Positions 8,972 to 19,282 of a stretch of 32,000 nucleotides of DNA are shown in pieces. The notes beneath the pieces were generated by a model. The model was not told the DNA's origin. It saw only the letters and a program-made list of their open reading frames with translations, and made no database searches. Source of the stretch: Minisyncoccota bacterium (GTDB taxonomy: Bacteria; Patescibacteriota; Minisyncoccia; Minisyncoccales; Minisyncoccaceae); assembly GCA_041650375.1 (NCBI GenBank), contig JBAZLH010000004.1:1-32000 (forward strand), given 5' to 3'. The translations under genes and the position numbers were made by a program. Each line of letters opens with the position of its first letter. Position 1 is the first letter of the stretch.

Positions 8972-10510
8972 TTATAACGGTATGCTTCCGTGCTTTCTCA
9001 TAATCTTATTTTCCCGTTTCGCGGAAATTGATTCCAAGCATTTAATTAAAACATTTCTGGTCTCGGCCGGATTAATAATTAAATCAACTTGCCCGAGCTT
9101 GGCAGCGCAAAACGGATCCAGTAAATTTTCTTTCAACTCCCCTATTTTTTCTTGCTCGATTTTTTCCGGATCCGGGCTGGCGTCAATTTGTTTTTTAAAA
9201 ATAATTTTTACCGCTTGTTCCGGCCCCATTACCGCGATTTGCGCTTCCGGCCAAGCAATCACTTTATCATAGCCAAGCTTGCGGGACGCCAAAGCGATAT
9301 ACGCTCCCCCAAAGGCTTTTCTTAGGATAACGCTAATCTTGGGAACCGAGGCTTCGGCATAGGCGTATAAAACCTTGGCGCCGTGCCTGATAATTCCCTG
9401 GTGTTCCTGGTTGGCGCCGGGCAAATATCCGGGAGTATCAACCAAGTTTATTATTGGTAAATTAAAAGCGTCGCAAAATCTGACAAAACGCGCAATCTTA
9501 TCCGAAGAATCAATGTCCAAAACTCCGGCAGAAGACTTGGCTTGGTTGGCCACCACTCCAACAACTTTTCCGGACAATCTGGCAAATCCCACTACCGCGT
9601 TGGCGGCAAAGCCGGCCTGAATTTCAAAAAAAGAATTCTCATCAAAAATCTCATTGATTACGGCTTTAATGTCATAACTCTTATTAAAATCTTCGGGAAC
9701 TATTTCCAATAACTTTTCATTTTTGTCCGCCCTGGCCGCGGCCGGTTTGGCGGGCATGTCTTCCAAATTGTTTTGAGGCAAATAAGAAAGCAATTGTTTT
9801 ACTCCAATAAAACAATCTTTTTCATTTTCGTAAACAAAATGCGCGCACCCGCTTTTGCTTCCGTGTACTGCGGCTCCGCCCAAATTTTCAAAATCAACAT
9901 CCTCGCCCGTTACTTTCTTAATCACTTCCGGCCCGGTAATATACATCTGGGATATTTTATCAACCATGAAAATAAAATCTGAAAGTCCGGGAGCGTAACA
10001 AGCTCCGCCCGCGGACGGGCCGACAATCACGCTTATCTGGGGCACCACGCCGGAAGACTTGACCATATTTTTAAATATGGAAGCGTAGCCGTCCAGGCTG
10101 GCAATCCCCTCCTGGATCCTGGCTCCGCCCGAATCCATAATGCCGATAATCGGGCATCCGTTCTTTTCCGCCAATTCAATTGTTTCCGCTATTTTCTGCC
10201 CGTGCATTTCACCCAAAGACCCGCCCATTTTGCTAAAGTCTTGGCTTAAAACATACACCAAGCGATTATTTATTTTACCGAATCCGGTAATCACGGAATC
10301 CCCCACGAACTTTTTTTTGCCCAATTCTTCTTCACTGAACCGGCTCTCAATAAAACCTCCCAATTCCACAAAGCTGCCCGCATCCAAAAGCAAATCAATT
10401 CTTTCTCTGGCGGTAAGCTTGCCTTTTTGGCGCTGTTTTTCCTCCAGTTCGGAATCTTTAAGCCCGGCCAATTTCTCATTTAATTTTTTTATGCCTTTTT
10501 CAAAATTCAT
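8972..10510 (-). CDS. Acyl-CoA carboxylase carboxyltransferase subunit (fused alpha/beta, PccB/AccD5/MmdA type)
   Basis: 512 aa with the typical LTARERIDLLLD, GGSLGEMHGQKI, DSGGARIQEG, GPSAGGACY and VIAWPEAQIAVMGPE regions. Confidence 0.9.
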   Translation of the reverse strand: MNFEKGIKKLNEKLAGLKDSELEEKQRQKGKLTARERIDLLLDAGSFVELGGFIESRFSEEELGKKKFVGDSVITGFGKINNRLVYVLSQDFSKMGGSLGEMHGQKIAETIELAEKNGCPIIGIMDSGGARIQEGIASLDGYASIFKNMVKSSGVVPQISVIVGPSAGGACYAPGLSDFIFMVDKISQMYITGPEVIKKVTGEDVDFENLGGAAVHGSKSGCAHFVYENEKDCFIGVKQLLSYLPQNNLEDMPAKPAAARADKNEKLLEIVPEDFNKSYDIKAVINEIFDENSFFEIQAGFAANAVVGFARLSGKVVGVVANQAKSSAGVLDIDSSDKIARFVRFCDAFNLPIINLVDTPGYLPGANQEHQGIIRHGAKVLYAYAEASVPKISVILRKAFGGAYIALASRKLGYDKVIAWPEAQIAVMGPEQAVKIIFKKQIDASPDPEKIEQEKIGELKENLLDPFCAAKLGQVDLIINPAETRNVLIKCLESISAKRENKIMRKHGSIPL

Positions 10511-10543
10511 AAATCTTAAATGTTTATTTTTTTAATTTATATT

Positions 10544-11095
10544 TTATTGGTTATTCTGATTAATTATTTCTAATTGATTTTTTAATTCCGAAAGGATTTT
10601 TTCCAAAATTTCGTTATTATCAATTTCTTTAAATAATACTTGCCGCAATGAAACGGAAATATCTTTTAAGTCATTTGGAAATTCTTTTATGTTCGTATCC
10701 AGCCCCACGCCGATTATGGAAACCAAGGTTTTATCTCCCATAATTACATTCTCGGTTAAAACGCCACAAACTTTTTTGCCATCCAATAAAATGTCATTTG
10801 GCAATTTTATTAACGGCTCCAAATTGAAATCGTCTTTTATGATTTTACTGATAACGAAAGCGGCTAAAATAGTAATGGTTTGCAAATCCGCGATGCTGCT
10901 CTTGGGCAAAATTACGGAAAAATACAATCCGCCTTCGGGAGAAAACCAAGCCTCCCCTTTTCGGCCGTGCCCATTGCTCTGTTGGCGCGCCAAAACAACC
11001 GTCCACGGCGATTCATTTTGAATTGCCAATTCTTTGGCCTTTTCACTGGTGGAAGGAATATCCTCAAATTCAATTATTTTAAATTTAGGCTCCAT
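10544..11095 (-). CDS. birA: Biotin-protein ligase, catalytic domain only
   Basis: GHGRKGEAWFSPEGGLYFS matches the GRGRxGRxWxSPxGxLYxS signature. At 183 aa it has no HTH and no obvious C-terminal BPL_C domain. Confidence 0.8.
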   Translation of the reverse strand: MEPKFKIIEFEDIPSTSEKAKELAIQNESPWTVVLARQQSNGHGRKGEAWFSPEGGLYFSVILPKSSIADLQTITILAAFVISKIIKDDFNLEPLIKLPNDILLDGKKVCGVLTENVIMGDKTLVSIIGVGLDTNIKEFPNDLKDISVSLRQVLFKEIDNNEILEKILSELKNQLEIINQNNQ

Positions 11096-11100
11096 AAATA

Positions 11101-11490
11101 TTATTCTAAAATTATAAGCAAATCCCCTTCCCTGACGGCTTGGCCCTTCTTGACCAATATTTCTTTTACCTTGCCTTGCGTTTCCGCCAAAATTTCATTT
11201 TCCATTTTCATGGCTGATAAGGTTAAAAGTTTTTGCGCCACTTTTATTAGGCTATTCGGCTCAATTGAAATTTCGGAAATTACGCCAGACAAAGGCGCTT
11301 TTATTTGTTTAGAATTTTTGGGCGCGATTGAGGCCGGCTTAACGAAACCGCTATTTTCTTTTTGCGCCTTTCCATTGCCGTTCGCGTCAAAAACATATTC
11401 GTTGCCGTCAATATTAACAACCACCGTGTCCGCCAAATCTTCCACGCTTACGTTATATTCCCTGCCTTTAATTTTTATTTTTAAATTCAT
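11101..11490 (-). CDS. accB: Biotin carboxyl carrier protein
   Basis: C-terminal biotinyl domain with LSAMKMENEI (AMKM biotinylation motif). Confidence 0.85.
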   Translation of the reverse strand: MNLKIKIKGREYNVSVEDLADTVVVNIDGNEYVFDANGNGKAQKENSGFVKPASIAPKNSKQIKAPLSGVISEISIEPNSLIKVAQKLLTLSAMKMENEILAETQGKVKEILVKKGQAVREGDLLIILE

Positions 11491-11492
11491 AC

Positions 11493-13031
11493 CTATCTCA
11501 TCATTTTAATCCTGTTTCCCGCAACCCATTTTGACGCCCCGGAAACATTATTTTGATTTTTATTTTTAACGCTTTTATACACCTGAAAAACCGCTTCGGC
11601 CAATTCCGGCTCGCTGATGTCGTGAACTAATTTTTCTTCAAAGTGCTTATGCGACCCGACCGAGCACATTATTTCTTTAAGTATTTCGCTCTCTTCTATA
11701 AAATTGGAATTATAATTTCCGGACAAAAAATCTTTATGTCTCAAAAGAATTTTAAAAAACGGAATCGTGGTGGAAACACCCTCAATGATTATTTCGTCCA
11801 GCGCCCGTTTCAGTTTGCTAATTGCCTCGTTCCGTGTTTTGCCGTGCGCGATAATCTTGGCTATCAAAGAATCAAAATACGGATAAATTTCCTGGCCTTC
11901 GTGCAAAAAACTGTGCACGAATATTCCCTGCCCGCCCGCCGGAACATATTTTTTAATCACCCCGGGCGTTGGCAAAAAATTCTTGGACGGGTCCTCGGAA
12001 TTGATTCTGGCTTCAATCGCCCAGCCGTTAAAATGGACTTCTTTTTGCGAAAAAGAAATTTGCTCGCCCCGGGCGATTCTAATTTGCTGCTCCACGATAT
12101 CTATTCCGGTAATAGCTTCCGTAACCGGATGCTCAACCTGAATTCTCGGATTAACTTCCATAAAATAATAATTGCCTTCCGTGTCCATTAAAAATTCCAC
12201 GGTGGCGGCTCCCTGATACCTCACTTCTTCGCAAATTTTTACAGCCCAACGCCCCATTTCTTCCCTTTGCTTATCCGTTAAAAAAGAAGACGGGCTCTCT
12301 TCCAGCAATTTTTGGAAGCGGCGCTGGATTGTGCAATCCCTCTCGCCCAAATGAACCGCCTTGCGCCCGTCGCCCAAAACCTGGAACTCAATATGCCTGG
12401 ATTCGGGCAAATATTTTTCCAAAAAGAAATCCAAATCCGTGAACCCGGCCGACATTTGTTTTTGGATTCCGGAAGTGATTGTTAAAAAGTCCGTGCCGCT
12501 GATGTCATGGTCGATTACGCGAATACCCATACCGCCTCCGCCCCTTTGGGCCTTAAAGATAAATGGCGGTTTGATTTTTCGCGCGCTCATAAATAAATCT
12601 TTGGTGGTTCTAATCGGACGGTCGCTGGCGGGCAAAGTCGGCACACCAACTTTCTTCGCCACTTTCTTGGCTTCAACTTTATCTTCAAATCTTCGAAGAG
12701 TTTTATAATGGGGCCCGATAAATTTTATTTTATTTTTCGCACACAAAAGGGCGAACTTCCAATTTTCCGCCAAAAAACCATAGCCCGGGTGAATCGCGTC
12801 CGCTTCCGCCCGCTTGGCTATTTCAATTATTTTTTGCTTATCCAAATATCCGGAAGACCCTTCTTTTTCCAAAAAATAAAATTCGTCCGCCAAATTGGCT
12901 TCCAAAAAATCTTTTTCTTGTCCAACCATGGGGCAAAGAGCCACGGTTTTAATACCCATCTCTTTGCAGGTTCGGATAATCCTGATGGCGATTTCTCCCC
13001 GATTGGCGATTAAAATCTTTTTAATTTTCAT
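11493..13031 (-). CDS. accC: Biotin carboxylase
   Basis: KILIANRGEIAIRIIR N-terminus, ATP-grasp region (GGGGMGIRV) and EVNPRIQVEHPVTE. Carries a C-terminal extension of about 60 aa. Confidence 0.92.
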   Translation of the reverse strand: MKIKKILIANRGEIAIRIIRTCKEMGIKTVALCPMVGQEKDFLEANLADEFYFLEKEGSSGYLDKQKIIEIAKRAEADAIHPGYGFLAENWKFALLCAKNKIKFIGPHYKTLRRFEDKVEAKKVAKKVGVPTLPASDRPIRTTKDLFMSARKIKPPFIFKAQRGGGGMGIRVIDHDISGTDFLTITSGIQKQMSAGFTDLDFFLEKYLPESRHIEFQVLGDGRKAVHLGERDCTIQRRFQKLLEESPSSFLTDKQREEMGRWAVKICEEVRYQGAATVEFLMDTEGNYYFMEVNPRIQVEHPVTEAITGIDIVEQQIRIARGEQISFSQKEVHFNGWAIEARINSEDPSKNFLPTPGVIKKYVPAGGQGIFVHSFLHEGQEIYPYFDSLIAKIIAHGKTRNEAISKLKRALDEIIIEGVSTTIPFFKILLRHKDFLSGNYNSNFIEESEILKEIMCSVGSHKHFEEKLVHDISEPELAEAVFQVYKSVKNKNQNNVSGASKWVAGNRIKMMR

Positions 13032-13680
13032 ACACTAATTTTTTAATTTCTTCCATTAACTTGCCGGTAATCTCGGCGCAAAAATTTTTATACTCTTCCG
13101 AATCAACGTTAATTTGTTTCGCTTTTTGAAAATACTCAACAAAGCTGAGCGGCTTGCCTATTCTCAATTCAATATTCTTTTTTATTTTCGGTTTTTCTCC
13201 CGGAGGAAAAGTTTCAAACGCCCCGACAATGCCCATGGGCAAAATCGGCACGCCGGTGCGTAAATACAGCTTGGCAACCCCCCATTTCCCTTCCATCACC
13301 TCACCCGTGCGCGTTCGGGTGCCTTCCGGATAAATTATCAAATCGTAGCCGTTTTTCAAATATTCAACCGCTTTTTCAAACGCCAACTTTTTGGATTCAT
13401 TGTCATTTCTGTTTACCGGAATAACCTCGGCGTAGGCGTATAAAAAAGTCCTCAAAAATTTAAAACCCTTATTCTCCCTGTCCACTTGCCCGATATAGGT
13501 AAATCGCCTCGGCACGCACACGTATCCGGAAAGAACAATATCCAAATAACTTTGGTGGTTGCTGGCTAAAATAAAATTGCCTAAAGGAATATTTTCTCTG
13601 CCTTTTAATTTTTTTATGAACACTCCGGAAACGATGGGAGCTAAAAATATTTTTGAAAAAATGGAAACGAATCTGTTCAT
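13021..13680 (-). CDS. plsC: 1-acyl-sn-glycerol-3-phosphate acyltransferase family
   Basis: NHQSYLD (HX4D) and IYPEGTRTRTG motifs. 11-nt overlap with accC. Confidence 0.85.
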   Translation of the reverse strand: MNRFVSIFSKIFLAPIVSGVFIKKLKGRENIPLGNFILASNHQSYLDIVLSGYVCVPRRFTYIGQVDRENKGFKFLRTFLYAYAEVIPVNRNDNESKKLAFEKAVEYLKNGYDLIIYPEGTRTRTGEVMEGKWGVAKLYLRTGVPILPMGIVGAFETFPPGEKPKIKKNIELRIGKPLSFVEYFQKAKQINVDSEEYKNFCAEITGKLMEEIKKLVYEN

Positions 13681-13684
13681 ATTT

Positions 13685-14626
13685 TTATTTTAACAAATTT
13701 TTTCCGTTTTCCAGCAATTCGGACGCGCCCAATACCAATTCATCCATTATTTCTTGGCAAGTCTTTATTTTATTGATTCCGCCCGCGCAAATTCCGCAAA
13801 GCATCGGAGTCAAGTCGGAATTAGCCGAACCTTTGTTGCCCGCAAACCTTTCCGAATTAACTTCTTCGGGAAACGGATTTTTTTCTTCCATCTTCTTAAT
13901 GGTTTCGGTCAATTTATTTTTCAAGGCGCGAATCGGATGGCCGGTAAAGCGCGCCACCACGGTTACGTCTTCATCGGTCGCGTTAATAATCGCGTTCTTA
14001 TAGTTTTCGTGGATTTGGCATTCCGCGCTCGCCATAAACCTGGTTCCGATCTGGACGCCATCCGCGCCCAACATTAATGCCGCGGCAAAAGTATGCGCGT
14101 CGTAAATTCCGCCCGCGGCGATAATCGGAATGGTTTTAATAACCTGGCTGGTTTGCGGCACCAAACAAAAAGTGGAATTTTCTCCAATATGCCCACCCGA
14201 TTCCATTCCTTCCACCACCACCGCGTCAATTCCGTTTTGTTCCATCTTCTGCGCCAAACGCACAAACGGAACTACGGCGATAACTTTAATGCCCGCTTTT
14301 TTCAAATAAGGCAAAATCGGCAAAGGATTTCCTCCGCCCGTAAAAACAATCGGAACTTTTTGTTTAATAATCACCTTTACCAATTCGGCGACATTGGGAT
14401 TTTGCATTAAAAGATTTACCCCAAACGGCTTATCGGTCAATGTTTTGGTTTTTTTGATTTCTTCTTCAAGCCAAGCAGGCGAAGCAAAGCCGGAACCGAT
14501 AACGCCAACTCCGCCCGCGTTGCTGACGGCCGCCACCAATACGGATTCGGATACGCCGGCCATGCCGCCCTGGATTATCGGATGTTTTATATTTAAAAGT
14601 TTTACCAGTTTATTATTCTCAAACAT
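13685..14626 (-). CDS. fabK: Enoyl-ACP reductase II / nitronate monooxygenase family flavoprotein
   Basis: HPIIQGGMAGVS, FGVNL and GADGVQIGTRF. Start set at MFENNKLVKLL (14626) to avoid a 50-nt overlap with the upstream gene. Confidence 0.8.
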   Translation of the reverse strand: MFENNKLVKLLNIKHPIIQGGMAGVSESVLVAAVSNAGGVGVIGSGFASPAWLEEEIKKTKTLTDKPFGVNLLMQNPNVAELVKVIIKQKVPIVFTGGGNPLPILPYLKKAGIKVIAVVPFVRLAQKMEQNGIDAVVVEGMESGGHIGENSTFCLVPQTSQVIKTIPIIAAGGIYDAHTFAAALMLGADGVQIGTRFMASAECQIHENYKNAIINATDEDVTVVARFTGHPIRALKNKLTETIKKMEEKNPFPEEVNSERFAGNKGSANSDLTPMLCGICAGGINKIKTCQEIMDELVLGASELLENGKNLLK

Positions 14627-14645
14627 TTTTTTATAATTAAATATA

Positions 14646-16157
14646 TTATGCTTTTCTAATAAGCGGCTCTTTGGCAAGAATATTGTTGGCCTCATCCACC
14701 AATTCTTTTAACAGCTCTTTAACGCTAATGATTTTTTCTATCCGCCAAGCGTTGCTGCCGGCAAAAACCAGACCATTGTCCAAATCGCCTTTTCTGGCAT
14801 TTTCCAAGGCTTTTAAGATGCAATAACTTTTATCGCAAACCGGACCGATGCAACCAATACATTCCGTTAAGTTAACCTTGGGGGCCGTGTTGTTTAAAAC
14901 TTTTTCCACGAATTTGGTTTTTATGGCGCGCCCGGGCAAACCAACCGGCGAATGCACAATCACAATATCTTCCGCCTTGGCGTTAATATACGCTTGTTTG
15001 AATTTTATATCCGCGTCACATTCATTGGTGGCCACGAATCTAGTCGCCATTTGCACTCCCGCGGCGCCAGCTTTTAACATTTCCACAATATCCTTGCCGC
15101 TAAAAACTCCGCCCGCGGCAATCAAAGGAATTTTCACTGTTTGAACGGCTTCTTTAATAATATCAATTGTTTTCCTGAATTCATGCCCTTCCGGAAAACC
15201 CAAATGTCCGCCCGCGTCGCAACCTTCAATAATCACGGCCGCGGCTCCGGCTTTTTCAGCTTTCTCGGCCACTCGCGCGGACGATGCCATGGCAAAAACA
15301 GGAATATCGTATTTGCCCGCGATTTCAAAAATATCTTCGCGGAAACCCGCCCCTTGGATAATCAAATTGATTCCTTCTTCGGCCGCGGCTTTAACTAATT
15401 CTTTGAAATGCCCGACCACTCCCATAATATTTATCCCAATGATTCCGCTTTCGCCCGCGATTTCCCGGGCCTGCCTGATTTCATCTTTTACTTCTTGCGG
15501 ATTATTCATTCCGGAAATCGCCACAATGCCAATCGCTCCTTCTTTGGCAACATTACCGGCTAAATTATGCAACGAAACTCTCACCGCCATCCCCCCTTGA
15601 ATAATGGGAATCCTGGCTAAAATATTCCTGACTTTAAGTGCCGGCAAATTAGAAATTTTTACTTCCGCAACGGCCGGATTTATTGTATTTTTTGATTCAG
15701 CCAATTTTTCTTGCATTTCTTTTTTTGTGACTACGGCCACGCTAAACCTGACTTCGCATTTTCTTTTATCGTTTACATAGGCTTCGCCCAAAAAATTCGC
15801 AATTCTCTCAGCATACATTCCCAGCATTTTTACCCGGTATTCAATTTTGTCTCCCGGCCAAATCGGCTCGTAAAAAAACGCGCTCCTGACTTGGTAAGCC
15901 AACAAGTGCTTGTCCGCGCTTTGCTCGCCTAATTTTTCGCGCAAAAGCAAAGTCCCGGTTTGGGCTATGCCCTCCACCACCAACACCCCCGGCATTATAG
16001 GAAAATCAACAAAGTGCCCTTTAAAAAAAGGGTCTTCAACGGAAGTGTATTTATAGCCGACAATATTATCGCCTTCTATTTTTTCAATCTCATCAACCCA
16101 TAAAAATGGTTCTTGATAAGGAATCTTTTCCTTGATTTGTTCTTTTGAATACAGCAT
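14646..16157 (-). CDS. Fusion protein: N-terminal FabZ-like hot-dog dehydratase plus C-terminal FabK/NMO-family TIM-barrel flavoprotein
   Basis: The first ~145 aa carry PFFKGHFVDFPIMPGVLVVEGIAQTG (FabZ signature). Residues ~170-503 carry IPIIQGGMAVRVS...GAAGVQMATRF. A CX2CX4CX4C cluster is encoded at 14820-14861. Confidence 0.8.
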   Translation of the reverse strand: MLYSKEQIKEKIPYQEPFLWVDEIEKIEGDNIVGYKYTSVEDPFFKGHFVDFPIMPGVLVVEGIAQTGTLLLREKLGEQSADKHLLAYQVRSAFFYEPIWPGDKIEYRVKMLGMYAERIANFLGEAYVNDKRKCEVRFSVAVVTKKEMQEKLAESKNTINPAVAEVKISNLPALKVRNILARIPIIQGGMAVRVSLHNLAGNVAKEGAIGIVAISGMNNPQEVKDEIRQAREIAGESGIIGINIMGVVGHFKELVKAAAEEGINLIIQGAGFREDIFEIAGKYDIPVFAMASSARVAEKAEKAGAAAVIIEGCDAGGHLGFPEGHEFRKTIDIIKEAVQTVKIPLIAAGGVFSGKDIVEMLKAGAAGVQMATRFVATNECDADIKFKQAYINAKAEDIVIVHSPVGLPGRAIKTKFVEKVLNNTAPKVNLTECIGCIGPVCDKSYCILKALENARKGDLDNGLVFAGSNAWRIEKIISVKELLKELVDEANNILAKEPLIRKA

Positions 16158-16357: not shown

Positions 16358-17098
16358 TTATAGTGATAATCCGCCGTCAATATTAATTACAGCTCCGGTA
16401 ATAAAACCGGCTTCGTTGGAAGCAATGAACGCGATTATGTTCGCAACTTCTTCCGGCTTTCCAAATCTGCCCAAGGCGGTTAATTGTTTTACCGTGGCTT
16501 TCATTTGCTCCGGAATCGCTTCCGCCATTTTTGTTTCAATAAATCCGGGCGCAATTGCGTTTGCCCTCACTCCCACGCGGCCGACTTCCTTGGCCAATGA
16601 TTTGGTAAAGGCGATTATGCCGGCTTTGCTGGCCGCGTAATTGGCCTGGCCAAAATTACCGCGTTGCCCAACGATTGAAGCCATGCTAACGATATTGCCC
16701 TGAACTGGAACAAGCAAAGGTAAGGCCGCTTTGCTGCAATTAAACACGCCGGTTAAGTTTACGTCAATCACTTTTTGCCACTCTTCCACAGTCATTTTCG
16801 CCAAGGTCCTGTCTTTGGTAATGCCAGCGTTATTAACCAACACGTCCAAGCGCCCCATTTTAATTTGGATATCAGCAATCATTTTTTCCACGCTTTCCAT
16901 ATTGGAAACATCGGCGCAAAAATATTCGGCTTGGCCCCCCGTAGCTTCTATTTCCACCTTAACGGCTTTCAAATTTTCTTCTTGTTGGACAATATCGTTC
17001 AAAGCCACTTTGGCGTTCAGGGAAGCGAATTTTAAAGCAATCGCTTTGCCGATTCCTTGCGAAGCACCGGTAATTAAAACAACTTTTTCTTTAAACAT
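16358..17098 (-). CDS. fabG: 3-oxoacyl-(ACP/CoA) reductase, SDR family
   Basis: TGASQGIGKAIA (TGxxxGIG), NNAGI and YAASKAG (YxxxK). FabG-like length of 246 aa. Confidence 0.9.
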   Translation of the reverse strand: MFKEKVVLITGASQGIGKAIALKFASLNAKVALNDIVQQEENLKAVKVEIEATGGQAEYFCADVSNMESVEKMIADIQIKMGRLDVLVNNAGITKDRTLAKMTVEEWQKVIDVNLTGVFNCSKAALPLLVPVQGNIVSMASIVGQRGNFGQANYAASKAGIIAFTKSLAKEVGRVGVRANAIAPGFIETKMAEAIPEQMKATVKQLTALGRFGKPEEVANIIAFIASNEAGFITGAVINIDGGLSL

Positions 17099-17106
17099 AT
17101 TTATTT

Positions 17107-18168
17107 TTATATTTTATTAATATTTAATTTTATTTCTTTTATTGCCCTGCCCGCAATCGGTATTTCTTCTAAATTAATTTGGGCGATAATTTCCGGCAAT
17201 TCTTTTTGCGATACGATTTCGTTTAAGACCCTGTCCAGGTTAATAAAATTCCGGCTCGCCAAAATTATTCCCAAAAAAGCGATAAACCCGTCGCTGGTTT
17301 GGATGTATTCGGCTTCTCCCAAAGAAACTAAATTGGGCAAAGCTTTTTCCAATTCCTTGGCAATATCTTTTTCCGAATTCAAATATTTCAGGCCCAAATA
17401 ATTTTCTTTTTTTAAAACGCGGAAGACGTTTTCCGTTGCCGCAACGTTTCCGGCTTTAAGCATTCCCAAATTAAGGACTATGTCGGCGCCAACAATTTCC
17501 TCCACGATTTCCAAGTTGCCCTGTTTCACAAAATTTGACTTGGATAAATCAATCGGCGTAATTTTATTTTTTAAGCAAACATCCAAAAGCCCGGACCGAG
17601 ACGCCATGGCTTCCACAGAAAGCTCGGTAAAAGATTGGGTAGCAATTTTTATGTTTTCCAATTTTATTTTTTTGCTGAAAAGAAAAGATAAAACGCTTGT
17701 CAAAAACTCCGGTGAAGTGTTTTCCCGGAAATAAGGCTGATTGGCGGAAATTAAGGTCGGCAAAATTAAAATTTTGGAATTTTCATTTAAATCAATTCCT
17801 CCAATCAATTCCAATGCTTTTTCAATCGCGTCCGCGTAATCATATTTTATCCGCCAAATTCCGACTGCATTCCTATCTGCGTTGCTTTCAAAAACCAATT
17901 TATCGCCCTCTTTAACTTCTTCCACGGTTTTATGCGCCCACTTGTTTTTATTCTCATCTTCAACCACGCAAGCGAAATATGGGACTATTGGATGTTTGAT
18001 TGTGGGAATAAAAACCTTGGAAACAGCGATTACTTTATTTTGGCCGGAAGCCATTTTTTTTAATTCGATATTGCAAAAAGGGCACTCGCTTAACGGGTAC
18101 TGCCAAATTCTTTCGCATTTTGAACATTTATAAAAAGGCATAAGGATATAATTAATTATTTCTTTCAA
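17107..18168 (-). CDS. Fusion protein: N-terminal DUF35-type zinc ribbon plus OB fold, C-terminal DUF362-like domain
   Basis: CSKC...CPFC ribbon, then an OB-like segment (VIAVSKVFIP...YFACVVEDE...EGDKLVF). The C-terminal ~230 aa resemble DUF362 (KILILPTL....TSPEFLTSV...ADIVLNLGMLK). 17-nt overlap with the thiolase gene. Confidence 0.6.
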   Translation of the reverse strand: MKEIINYILMPFYKCSKCERIWQYPLSECPFCNIELKKMASGQNKVIAVSKVFIPTIKHPIVPYFACVVEDENKNKWAHKTVEEVKEGDKLVFESNADRNAVGIWRIKYDYADAIEKALELIGGIDLNENSKILILPTLISANQPYFRENTSPEFLTSVLSFLFSKKIKLENIKIATQSFTELSVEAMASRSGLLDVCLKNKITPIDLSKSNFVKQGNLEIVEEIVGADIVLNLGMLKAGNVAATENVFRVLKKENYLGLKYLNSEKDIAKELEKALPNLVSLGEAEYIQTSDGFIAFLGIILASRNFINLDRVLNEIVSQKELPEIIAQINLEEIPIAGRAIKEIKLNINKI

Positions 18169-19282
18169 AAATATGGACTGTAACCGAACCGCCGGCGCCG
18201 CCGATGTTGTGGGTTAGGCCGTATTTGGGCAATGGATTTGTTTGCCTTTCCGGTTCGCATCGGCCTCTCAGCTGATTGGTAATTTCGTAAATTTGCGCGA
18301 GCCCGGTTACGGAAATAGGATGGCCTTTGGCTTTCAAGCCGCCGGAAGGATTAATGGGCATTACCCCGCCTAAATTTATTTTGCCTGACTTAATCAGTTC
18401 CGCGCCTTTGCCCTCATTTGCAAAACCCAAATCCTCGTATGAAATCAATTCCACGGACGTAAAAGCGTCGTGGACTTCCGCCACGTTAATATCTGCAACC
18501 GCTATGCCGGCTTGTTTAAAAGCTTTTTGCGCCGCCAATCGGGTGGCTTTAAAATGAGTAATATCCTCCCGGCCAAAAGTTAAAATATAGTCAGTGGCAA
18601 AACCCGAACCGACAATCTTTACATCTGTTTCTTCTTGGGTAATAACAATGGCCGCTCCCCCGTTCACAGACAAAGAACAGTCCATTAAACGGAAAGGTGA
18701 AGAAACAATTGGAGAATTTTTAACTTTTTCCAAATCCACGGGTTTTTTATAAAAATAAGCTTTTGGGTTTAACGCCGCGTTAGTATGGTTTTTAAAAGCG
18801 ATTAGAGATAAGTCATCCATGCTCGCCCCGTATTTTTTCATATATTGCTGCCAAACCAAAGCGTTTTGGGTAGGAAAAAGCATCCCCTCGGTTTGCTCGG
18901 TCATTTTTTCCGCGGCTGAAAGGATCCAATCCGTGGTTGTTTCGCTTTTGTTGTCCGCGAATTTTTCCGAAGCTAAAACCAGAATATTTTTATATTGCTG
19001 CAATTGTAATGCCGTCCAAAAAGCCACTCCGCCGCCGCCGCAAACAGATGTAACCTCTATAATCGGGACATTGGTTTTAAATAAATCCGAGAGAAAAGAT
19101 ACTTTGTGCGTTTGGTGCTCCCCGCCCGCCGGGCTAGACATGCTCGCAAAAACAATCGCGTCTATGTCCGCGATTGTCATATTTCCGTCTTTTAACGCGT
19201 CCAGAGCCGCCTCGTAAGCGAATTGCCACCAAGGTTTCGTGGAATAATCAAACTTAGTCATCCCTACTCCTTTGATATACAT
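18152..19282 (-). CDS. Thiolase-like protein of the SCP-x / archaeal acetoacetyl-CoA thiolase type
   Basis: N-terminal YIKGVGMTKF, candidate nucleophile VTSVCGGGG, VHDAFT, NPSGGLKAKGHPISVTG and C-terminal NIGGAGGS. Confidence 0.85.
   Translation of the reverse strand: MYIKGVGMTKFDYSTKPWWQFAYEAALDALKDGNMTIADIDAIVFASMSSPAGGEHQTHKVSFLSDLFKTNVPIIEVTSVCGGGGVAFWTALQLQQYKNILVLASEKFADNKSETTTDWILSAAEKMTEQTEGMLFPTQNALVWQQYMKKYGASMDDLSLIAFKNHTNAALNPKAYFYKKPVDLEKVKNSPIVSSPFRLMDCSLSVNGGAAIVITQEETDVKIVGSGFATDYILTFGREDITHFKATRLAAQKAFKQAGIAVADINVAEVHDAFTSVELISYEDLGFANEGKGAELIKSGKINLGGVMPINPSGGLKAKGHPISVTGLAQIYEITNQLRGRCEPERQTNPLPKYGLTHNIGGAGGSVTVHIFERNN

Follow-up and report, generated by a model that had tools for sequence, protein, structure and literature searches.

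RESULTS

A minus-strand gene fusing DUF35-like and DUF362-like parts follows a thiolase gene

We analyzed a DNA stretch of 32,000 nucleotides (the window; positions 1 to 32,000 of contig JBAZLH010000004.1) from a Minisyncoccota bacterium and focused on a single open frame that runs on the minus strand from position 18168 to position 17107. It is flanked by genes encoding a thiolase (18152 to 19282) and a FabG-type short-chain dehydrogenase/reductase (SDR; 16358 to 17098). Its product joins a DUF35-like module, consisting of a zinc ribbon and an oligonucleotide/oligosaccharide-binding (OB) fold, to a domain related to the DUF362 family. An earlier reading based on the sequence alone (the original prediction) had described a gene at 17107 to 18168 with the motifs CSKC...CPFC, KILILPTL, NTSPEF, and ADIVLNLGMLK, all of which are present in the translation.

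The original prediction started this frame at an in-frame TTG (18166 to 18168), which results in a protein of 353 amino acids and a 17-nt overlap with the thiolase gene. A search of a collection of 5.8 billion proteins returned 353 clusters (90% identity) at an E value of ≤0.001. Among the matches listed, the full-length homologs had 338 to 350 amino acids and covered 95 to 97% of the query. In the alignments, the starts of all homologs but one coincided with Met10 of the TTG reading, corresponding to the ATG at 18141, and the TTG is probably unused, given that 22 of the 23 aligned homologs carry no N-terminal extension. The sole homolog with a longer extension (P0106; 1 of 23) has one of its own that is only partly alignable. 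Because the homolog N termini match this ATG (18139 to 18141), the fusion gene was assigned to positions 17107 to 18141 of the minus strand; its checked translation comprises 344 amino acids plus a stop codon. A 10-nt spacer thus separates it from the thiolase stop codon (18152 to 18154), and the 17-nt overlap, which hangs on the TTG at 18168, had to be abandoned. Relatives with adjacent genes were similarly compact, with spacings from +1 nt (L001, L008, and L029) to a 4-nt overlap (L027). The close coupling of thiolase and fusion gene is therefore real, here and in relatives, even though the specific overlap first put forward for it is not.

The public gene call for this protein (P0001; 315 amino acids, 17107 to 18054, minus strand) has its start at Met39 in the TTG reading, which leaves out the conserved zinc ribbon; this start was probably mis-called.

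The N-terminal part resembles DUF35 subunits

An AlphaFold2 (AF2) model of the fusion protein, built from 85 sequences, had a pLDDT of 94.5 and a pTM of 0.92. Its comparison with the Protein Data Bank (PDB) using Foldseek divided the model cleanly into a DUF35-like and a LarA-like part. The first ~100 columns matched the DUF35 subunits PhlB, MucB, and BbsA, the DUF35 parts of ChsH2 and Shy, the DUF35 protein of 6esq, Trf, and 3irb, with E values of 2.5e-4 to 5e-3, TMt values of 0.43 to 0.51, root mean square deviations of 3.1 to 4.3 Å, and a probability of 1.00 to more than 10 DUF35 chains. Among these matches is the DUF35 subunit of every assembly solved with a thiolase-like partner. The Pfam models for DUF35 (COG1545), PF01796 for the OB fold and PF12172 for the zinc ribbon, did not match the window protein at an E value of ≤1 or any of the 85 relatives at an E value of ≤0.01, and NCBIfam returned no DUF35 match. 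The family profile aligned with the PDB DUF35 chains 6htj and 6esq at E values of 0.18 to 0.25, with correct alignment of the ribbon and of the beginning of the OB fold, and an hhalign comparison with one canonical DUF35 protein gave an E value of 0.065. Since the Pfam and NCBIfam DUF35 models gave nothing, the assignment rests on the fold and on these weak profile matches.

According to the structural model, residues 1 to 88 (17878 to 18141, minus strand) form a DUF35 module, very divergent in sequence, in which a four-Cys, rubredoxin-like zinc ribbon precedes the OB barrel. The ribbon is formed by C6, C9, C20, and C23 (344-residue numbering; nucleotides 18073 to 18126, minus strand). Across the 85 sequences, three of these cysteines (C6, C9, and C20) never vary, and the fourth, C23, is retained in at least 90%; at the family level, conservation of at least 95% was noted for the ribbon cysteines together with W13, H50, and the P54-Y55 pair. 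The module has no counterpart of the N-terminal lead of ~18 amino acids found in canonical DUF35 proteins. The border to the second domain, originally drawn at residues 115 to 125, was relocated to residues 88 to 92, with strand 93 to 97 aligning with the first strand of stand-alone DUF362 proteins. To our knowledge, every solved DUF35 module binds a thiolase-fold partner.

The C-terminal part is a reduced DUF362/LarA-like domain

Pfam, Foldseek, and the alignment of motifs agreed in identifying residues 89 to 344 (17110 to 17877, minus strand) as a reduced α/β domain of the DUF362 type that resembles the N-domain of LarA. In the Foldseek comparison, ~260 to 275 columns matched the LarA-like nickel-pincer enzymes 9q3j, 9q3k, and 9eia (E values of 7e-5 to 5e-3; TMq of ~0.42). 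The window protein matched the DUF362 model PF04015 with an E value of 1e-4 and 22.8 to 22.9 bits (cutoff, 24) over profile positions 2 to 110 of 200 only, corresponding to residues 125 to 230 in the Pfam placement (nucleotides 17452 to 17769, minus strand). The score rose to 24.4 bits when neighboring pieces in frame were added. Among the relatives, 83 of 85 matched this model at an E value of ≤0.01, the best at 6.7e-17. DUF362 and DUF2088, the family of the LarA N-domain, both belong to Pfam clan CL0471 (PMC11770544). The central claim of the original prediction, that a DUF35-type ribbon and OB fold are joined to a DUF362-like domain in a gene neighboring that of a thiolase, is borne out by these fold matches and by the PF04015 matches of the relatives. 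Further Foldseek matches, to S-adenosylmethionine (SAM) METHYLTRANSFERASES (E values of 0.05 to 0.2; probability of <0.5), were set aside as a generic Rossmann-like resemblance.

An alignment and a motif table revealed the features that are common to stand-alone DUF362 proteins and to the DUF35::DUF362 fusions of DPANN archaea, namely, (I/L)(I/L)KPN, T(H/N)P, INxPxxKTH, KN(M/L)xG, a conserved His, and DGxxGxEGxGP. Both groups also share a further region of ~120 amino acids containing either CxxC..C..C or a 4Fe-4S ferredoxin part. At the motif positions, the window's family has LPT, TSP, KAG, and EN; DGxxGxEGxGP is deleted and there is no conserved His. The segment KILILPTL (17752 to 17775, minus strand) thus occupies the position of (I/L)(I/L)KPN with its Lys and Asn lost, and ADIVLNLGMLK(AG) (17455 to 17487, minus strand) that of INxPxxKTH, with N224 and K229 kept and Thr-His lost. 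The window protein ends at residue 344, before the Cys region, and has no second lobe. In LarA, the cofactor and the active site are located between the two lobes, and the window protein, missing the second one, retains half of a LarA-type cleft. No LarC (PF01969) was found in the window's genome. The original suggestion that the additional domain might bind a cofactor is weakened by these observations, namely, the missing DUF362 motifs, the missing second LarA-like domain, and the lack of a LarC match. A nickel-pincer enzyme was ruled out on the same three grounds.

The C-terminal domain is about as conserved as the N-terminal one, with mean top-residue frequencies of 0.65 and 0.66 and identities to the window protein of 55% and 52%, respectively. 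The DUF362 remnant, conserved to the same degree as the DUF35 part, is not decaying and remains under selection. Invariant positions in this domain are K123, P128, Q169, F171, N224, N238, G331, and R332, and K229 and D303 are near-invariant.

Relatives occur in patescibacteria and DPANN archaea

Scanning 1.84 billion representative sequences with HMMER, we found three kinds of relative: window-like proteins of ~340 amino acids, proteins of 460 to 495 amino acids that combine the same N-terminal module with a strong DUF362 match (E values down to 1e-48), and ordinary stand-alone DUF362 proteins. The long forms, traced via the protein collection, originated from DPANN archaea (Diapherotrites, Woesearchaeota, and Nanoarchaeota) wherever a source was named. 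P0156, submitted as a single query to the species-representative genomes, returned only distant DUF362 proteins. The model of one long DPANN form (P0250; pLDDT of 90.3) matched LarA, malate racemase, and LarA homologs over both lobes with an E value of 5.6e-9 and ~460 columns, as compared with 7e-5 and ~270 columns for the window form.

We constructed a maximum likelihood tree of 53 proteins (quick IQ-TREE run, SH-aLRT support) that was rooted on stand-alone DUF362 proteins. All DUF35-fused forms fell into one group (support of 94). The window's family, from the candidate phyla radiation (CPR), formed a clade (100) whose stem was long (0.83 changes per column); this clade was sister (99) to "mid" forms of DPANN archaea of the Woesearchaeota/Nanoarchaeota type. 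A second, very divergent short family came from another patescibacterial lineage (L008 and relatives). This topology fits a single origin of the fusion with exchange between DPANN archaea and the CPR, followed by fast change as motifs were lost; the direction of the transfer depends on the rooting.

An even sample of the phylum, comprising 300 other genomes (301 with the window's own), contained 7 matches in all, and in the window's order the fusion was detected in 47 of 151 genomes, 45 of which had strong matches. The architecture had been considered unusual; given the 353 clusters, its frequency in this order, and its presence in DPANN archaea, it is common, and what holds of that view is that it is uncharacterized. 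Databases label these proteins as "DUF362 domain-containing" or hypothetical, and one JGI entry adds "uncharacterized OB-fold protein." Our literature searches retrieved no paper describing a DUF35::DUF362 fusion and none combining DUF35 with CPR or DPANN terms, and none of the DUF362 papers found deals with a fusion to DUF35.

The fusion gene is co-inherited with thiolase, FabZ, and acetyl-CoA carboxylase genes

The fusion gene sits in a run of ten minus-strand genes. The upstream gene (18152 to 19282, minus strand) encodes a thiolase of the SCP2/archaeal type according to Pfam and NCBIfam, with 7yvy and 6esq_A as best PDB matches. It is the only thiolase found in the genome (702 kb, 97.4% complete) and the presumed docking partner. 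The FabG-type SDR gene (16358 to 17098, minus strand) lies 8 nt downstream of the fusion gene, and the rest of the conserved operon (8972 to 16157, minus strand) encodes, as identified with Pfam, a FabZ-FabK fusion, FabK, a PlsC-like acyltransferase, biotin carboxylase, biotin carboxyl carrier protein, biotin ligase, and carboxyltransferase. The same gene order was observed in L001 and L003 and recurs in L008. The thiolase gene directly precedes the fusion gene in the window (10 nt), in L001, in the distant patescibacterial locus L008 (in the order thiolase, fusion, and SDR), and in the DPANN loci L027, L028, and L029. In L010, the thiolase frame extends into the beginning of the fusion frame, and in some Paceibacteria one or two genes are located between the two.

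Of the 45 genomes with a strong fusion match, 41 had a high-scoring Thiolase_C_1 match; in three of the remaining four the fusion match lies at a contig end, and in one it is partial. FabZ was present in 43 of the 45, the carboxyltransferase of acetyl-CoA carboxylase (ACC) in 41, and a PP-binding (acyl carrier protein [ACP]) match in 1. The corresponding numbers for the other 106 genomes of the order were 2 for Thiolase_C_1 (both weak, ~1e-20), 2 for FabZ, and 4 for the carboxyltransferase. As the genomes are related, these counts describe co-inheritance and do not constitute an independent statistical test. In the window's genome, we found no match for ACP, ketoacyl-synthase, the C-domain of ketoacyl-ACP synthase III (KAS-III), FabD, the C-domain of HMG-CoA synthase (HMGCS), or canonical DUF35 (PF01796 at an E value of ≤0.1).

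Residues 271 to 274 of the thiolase (18461 to 18472, minus strand) read HDAF, at a position where SCP2-type thiolases have the Cys-bearing HDCF. HDAF was present in all 120 closest thiolase homologs, HDGF in distant patescibacterial ones, and HDCF in the partner thiolase of the DPANN locus L027 and in 6esq_A. HDAF is also found in 7yvy (annotated in the PDB as "acetyl-CoA acetyltransferase") and in BbsB. The Cys of the motif DCS (C202) is conserved in 119 of the 120 homologs. Taken with the ACC genes of the operon, the HDAF motif hints at a condensation driven by malonyl-CoA, although 7yvy and BbsB share it.

DISCUSSION

Proposed function and alternatives

We assign a probability of roughly 55% to the reading that the fusion protein is the adaptor subunit of a CoA-based, thiolase-driven acyl-chain synthase in which the second domain is repurposed and noncatalytic. 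Its N-terminal ribbon/OB module (residues 1 to 88) would dock on the dimer of the upstream thiolase, by analogy with solved DUF35 complexes. The C-terminal domain would descend from a two-domain, Cys-bearing DUF362 enzyme of the LarA clan, which appears intact in the DPANN orthologs, and would have shed its second lobe and most of the family-wide polar motifs in the CPR lineage. It would now serve as a structural platform, placed where HMGCS or KAS-III-like partners sit in three-part DUF35 complexes, and may also recruit FabG and the FabZ-FabK protein encoded alongside; channeling by the recruited enzymes would pull the unfavorable condensation forward. In favor of this reading are the two folds, the loss of motifs from a domain that is nevertheless conserved throughout the family, the synteny and co-occurrence with the thiolase, the negative searches for ACP, ketoacyl-synthase, FabD, HMGCS, and LarC, and the precedent of a DUF35-mediated assembly in Sulfolobus acidocaldarius; thiolase binding, the scaffold role of the second domain, and a CoA-based pathway are what we infer. 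The original idea that the extra domain replaces the HMGCS partner is plausible, and the genome yielded neither an HMGCS nor a KAS-III-like gene.

A number of observations weigh against this adaptor role. The invariant or near-invariant polar residues of the C-terminal domain (K123, Q169, N224, K229, N238, D303, and R332) could make up a site for a ligand instead of an interface, and docking on the thiolase is argued by analogy only. Within 7 kb of contig C2 of the window's genome (G000; 163761 to 170455) there are three PlsY (G3P_acyltransf) matches, two of them adjacent, and a related locus contains FakA- and DegV-family genes, so that lipid scavenging could suffice. In L027 and L028, the thiolase-fusion pair is located beside acetyltransferase and glycosyltransferase genes and there are no fatty acid synthesis genes nearby; the pair is therefore not tied to fatty acid synthesis as such.

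The conserved polar residues can also be accommodated by a second explanation, possible in our view but doubtful, in which the DUF362-derived domain is still ligand binding or catalytic and either keeps malonyl- or acyl-CoA at the thiolase by its CoA/3'-phospho-ADP part or aids a decarboxylative condensation. A working domain would account for a C-terminal part that is as conserved as the DUF35 part and in which K, Q, N, N, D, and R residues are invariant, and would agree with the nucleotide cofactor bound by the LarA fold (PMC11770544), with the complete ACC in the operon, and with HDAF in all 120 closest thiolase homologs, which would suit a malonyl-CoA-driven condensation. However, the domain has lost the residues that all other DUF362 proteins conserve, together with the lobe that makes up half of the active-site cleft in LarA, and HDAF also occurs in 7yvy and BbsB; in addition, the β-oxidation ketothiolase tested from S. 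acidocaldarius (Saci_1114) did not use malonyl-CoA, and the authors of that study identified no decarboxylating ketothiolase. A more far-reaching version, which we consider a long shot, regards the DUF362-derived domain as a stand-in for ACP, i.e., a fixed, noncovalent holder of the nucleotide end of acyl- or malonyl-CoA that would pass the thioester successively before the thiolase, FabG, and FabZ-FabK, with the HDAF thiolase condensing decarboxylatively with malonyl-CoA. If true, a racemase-fold enzyme would have been turned into a substrate-handling device.

The gene neighborhoods bear on whether the pair acts in lipid synthesis at all. It might instead supply acetoacetyl-CoA for another product or carry out thiolytic breakdown, its location in a lipid operon being incidental. 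We judge this improbable. The DPANN pair in L027 and L028 does adjoin GNAT or aminoglycoside-type acetyltransferases and glycosyltransferases, and other DUF35 complexes perform acyl transfer, aldol cleavage, or thiolysis. In the window's order, however, the pair is co-inherited with FabZ and ACC and was not found in most genomes that lack them, the gene order is repeated in L001, L003, and L008, and no mevalonate-pathway HMGCS was found in the genome. A role in the mevalonate pathway was ruled out, since neither HMGCS nor a KAS-III C-domain was found there. That assembly or gene calling artificially joined two separate genes has a negligible probability: the public call P0001 differs from the frame used here, but the uninterrupted architecture is present in more than 350 protein clusters and dozens of independent genomes and yields one confident, compact AF2 model. 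On the basis of this recurrence across clusters and genomes, a fusion artifact was ruled out.

Comparison with known DUF35 and DUF362 systems

A close parallel to the proposed adaptor is found in S. acidocaldarius, where a DUF35 protein mediates the stable assembly of a ketothiolase, an SDR reductase, and a dehydratase (bioRxiv 10.1101/2024.07.05.601840). That complex (Saci_1121/Saci_1120 with SDR and MaoC; Schmerling 2024) and the window's operon share the thiolase and DUF35 gene pair, an SDR ketoreductase, and the lack of ACP. In the proposal they would also share DUF35 as the mediator of assembly. In contrast to the archaeal system, the window's operon belongs to a bacterium, includes ACC, and encodes a DUF35 module that carries a DUF362-derived domain, and a FabZ-type dehydratase and two FabK/NMO-type enoyl reductases take the place of MaoC and a medium-chain dehydrogenase/reductase.

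The thiolase/HMGCS/DUF35 complex of Methanothermococcus thermolithotrophicus (6esq), of which PhlABC (5m3k) and MucABC (9vbt) are derivatives, provided the second-best PDB sequence match of the window thiolase (E value of 2.9e-54) as well as DUF35 fold matches. It differs in its third subunit: no HMGCS or KAS-III-like counterpart was found in the window's genome, and a fused LarA-like domain is present instead. Moreover, the window's DUF35 module is without the canonical N-terminal lead, and its thiolase has HDAF, as opposed to HDCF in 6esq_A. A DUF35 docking module fused to a second domain is known from ChsH2 and Shy (6ok1 and 9myr), which also gave fold matches and are MaoC hydratase-DUF35 fusions tethered to the thiolase-like aldolases Ltp2 and Sal (PMC11321319 and PMC12329534). 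There, DUF35 is C-terminal and the partner domain works as a hydratase in the same pathway, whereas in the window protein DUF35 is N-terminal and the partner is a motif-poor DUF362 domain.

For the second domain, the points of reference are DUF362 (PF04015) and the LarA/DUF2088 racemases (CL0471). The window protein is connected to them by the fold of residues 89 to 344 and by a transitive sequence homology, seen in the PF04015 matches of the relatives (83 of 85) and in the link to stand-alone DUF362 proteins in the tree. Conversely, it matches the first half of the Pfam profile only, it has lost the KPN, KTH, and DG..GP motifs, the second lobe or Fe-S part is likewise missing, and the search for LarC was negative. 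The DPANN DUF35::DUF362 proteins (460 to 490 amino acids) have the same fusion order, follow directly after a thiolase, and form one clade with the window's family, but they keep the DUF362 motifs, many retain the CxxC..C..C second domain, and they match both LarA lobes.

The idea is partly in print at the operon level (Probst 2020; Schmerling 2024). According to Probst et al. (2020; PMC7242380), certain Nealsonbacteria possess nearly complete sets of fatty acid and phospholipid genes with no ACP machinery, and the authors raised the possibility of an ACP-independent route; thiolase, DUF35, and DUF362 are not mentioned in that paper. The present case is best filed as a real, conserved, and uncharacterized domain fusion that varies the theme of DUF35 adaptors, rather than as a new kind of system. 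It is a marker of a conserved gene set, centered on a thiolase, with which some bacteria with tiny genomes (CPR/Paceibacteria) could build acyl chains without ACP, and it provides DUF362, a large family with no assigned function, with a fixed partner, the thiolase, and a metabolic setting. The graded natural series from the intact, enzyme-like DPANN forms to the stripped CPR forms could illustrate the conversion of an enzyme domain into a scaffold. With respect to DUF35 biology, the fusion would represent a third way to fill the partner position, in addition to HMGCS/KAS-III-like proteins as separate subunits and MaoC hydratases as fused domains.

Variation among related loci

Gene content and integrity varied among the loci inspected. 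In the window, FabZ (FabA-like) is fused to a FabK/NMO-type reductase (503 amino acids, 14646 to 16157, minus strand) and followed by a second, stand-alone FabK; in L003, FabZ is a separate protein of 158 amino acids, and the FabZ-FabK fusion thus varies within the order. An ortholog from the same order (L017; G315:C26:8054-9070) is matched over its full length (E value of 1.5e-164) except that two in-frame TAA codons occur within it, which may reflect a pseudogene or sequencing errors. In L003 (6890 to 7995) and L004 (465 to 1555), the thiolase and fusion genes are separated by a CYTH-domain gene and, on the opposite strand, a DUF359 gene. We take DUF359 to be the archaeal-type GTP-dependent dephospho-CoA kinase family.

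The DPANN loci were more heterogeneous. The pair is followed by a GNAT or aminoglycoside-type N-acetyltransferase in L027 (8377 to 10277) and L028 (2268 to 3203), in the former case along with a polysaccharide deacetylase, and the intact DPANN form may serve another acyl-transfer pathway. The Woesearchaeota-type locus L029 (1 to 15455) encodes biotin carboxylase, FabZ, thiolase, DUF35::DUF362, a second thiolase, a CoA-transferase, a methyltransferase, and an SDR. Further on, there are a separate KAS-III/HMGCS-like gene, a thiolase with Asp at the aligned nucleophile position, a canonical DUF35 protein of 103 amino acids, and MaoC, so that both kinds of DUF35 module are found side by side at this locus.

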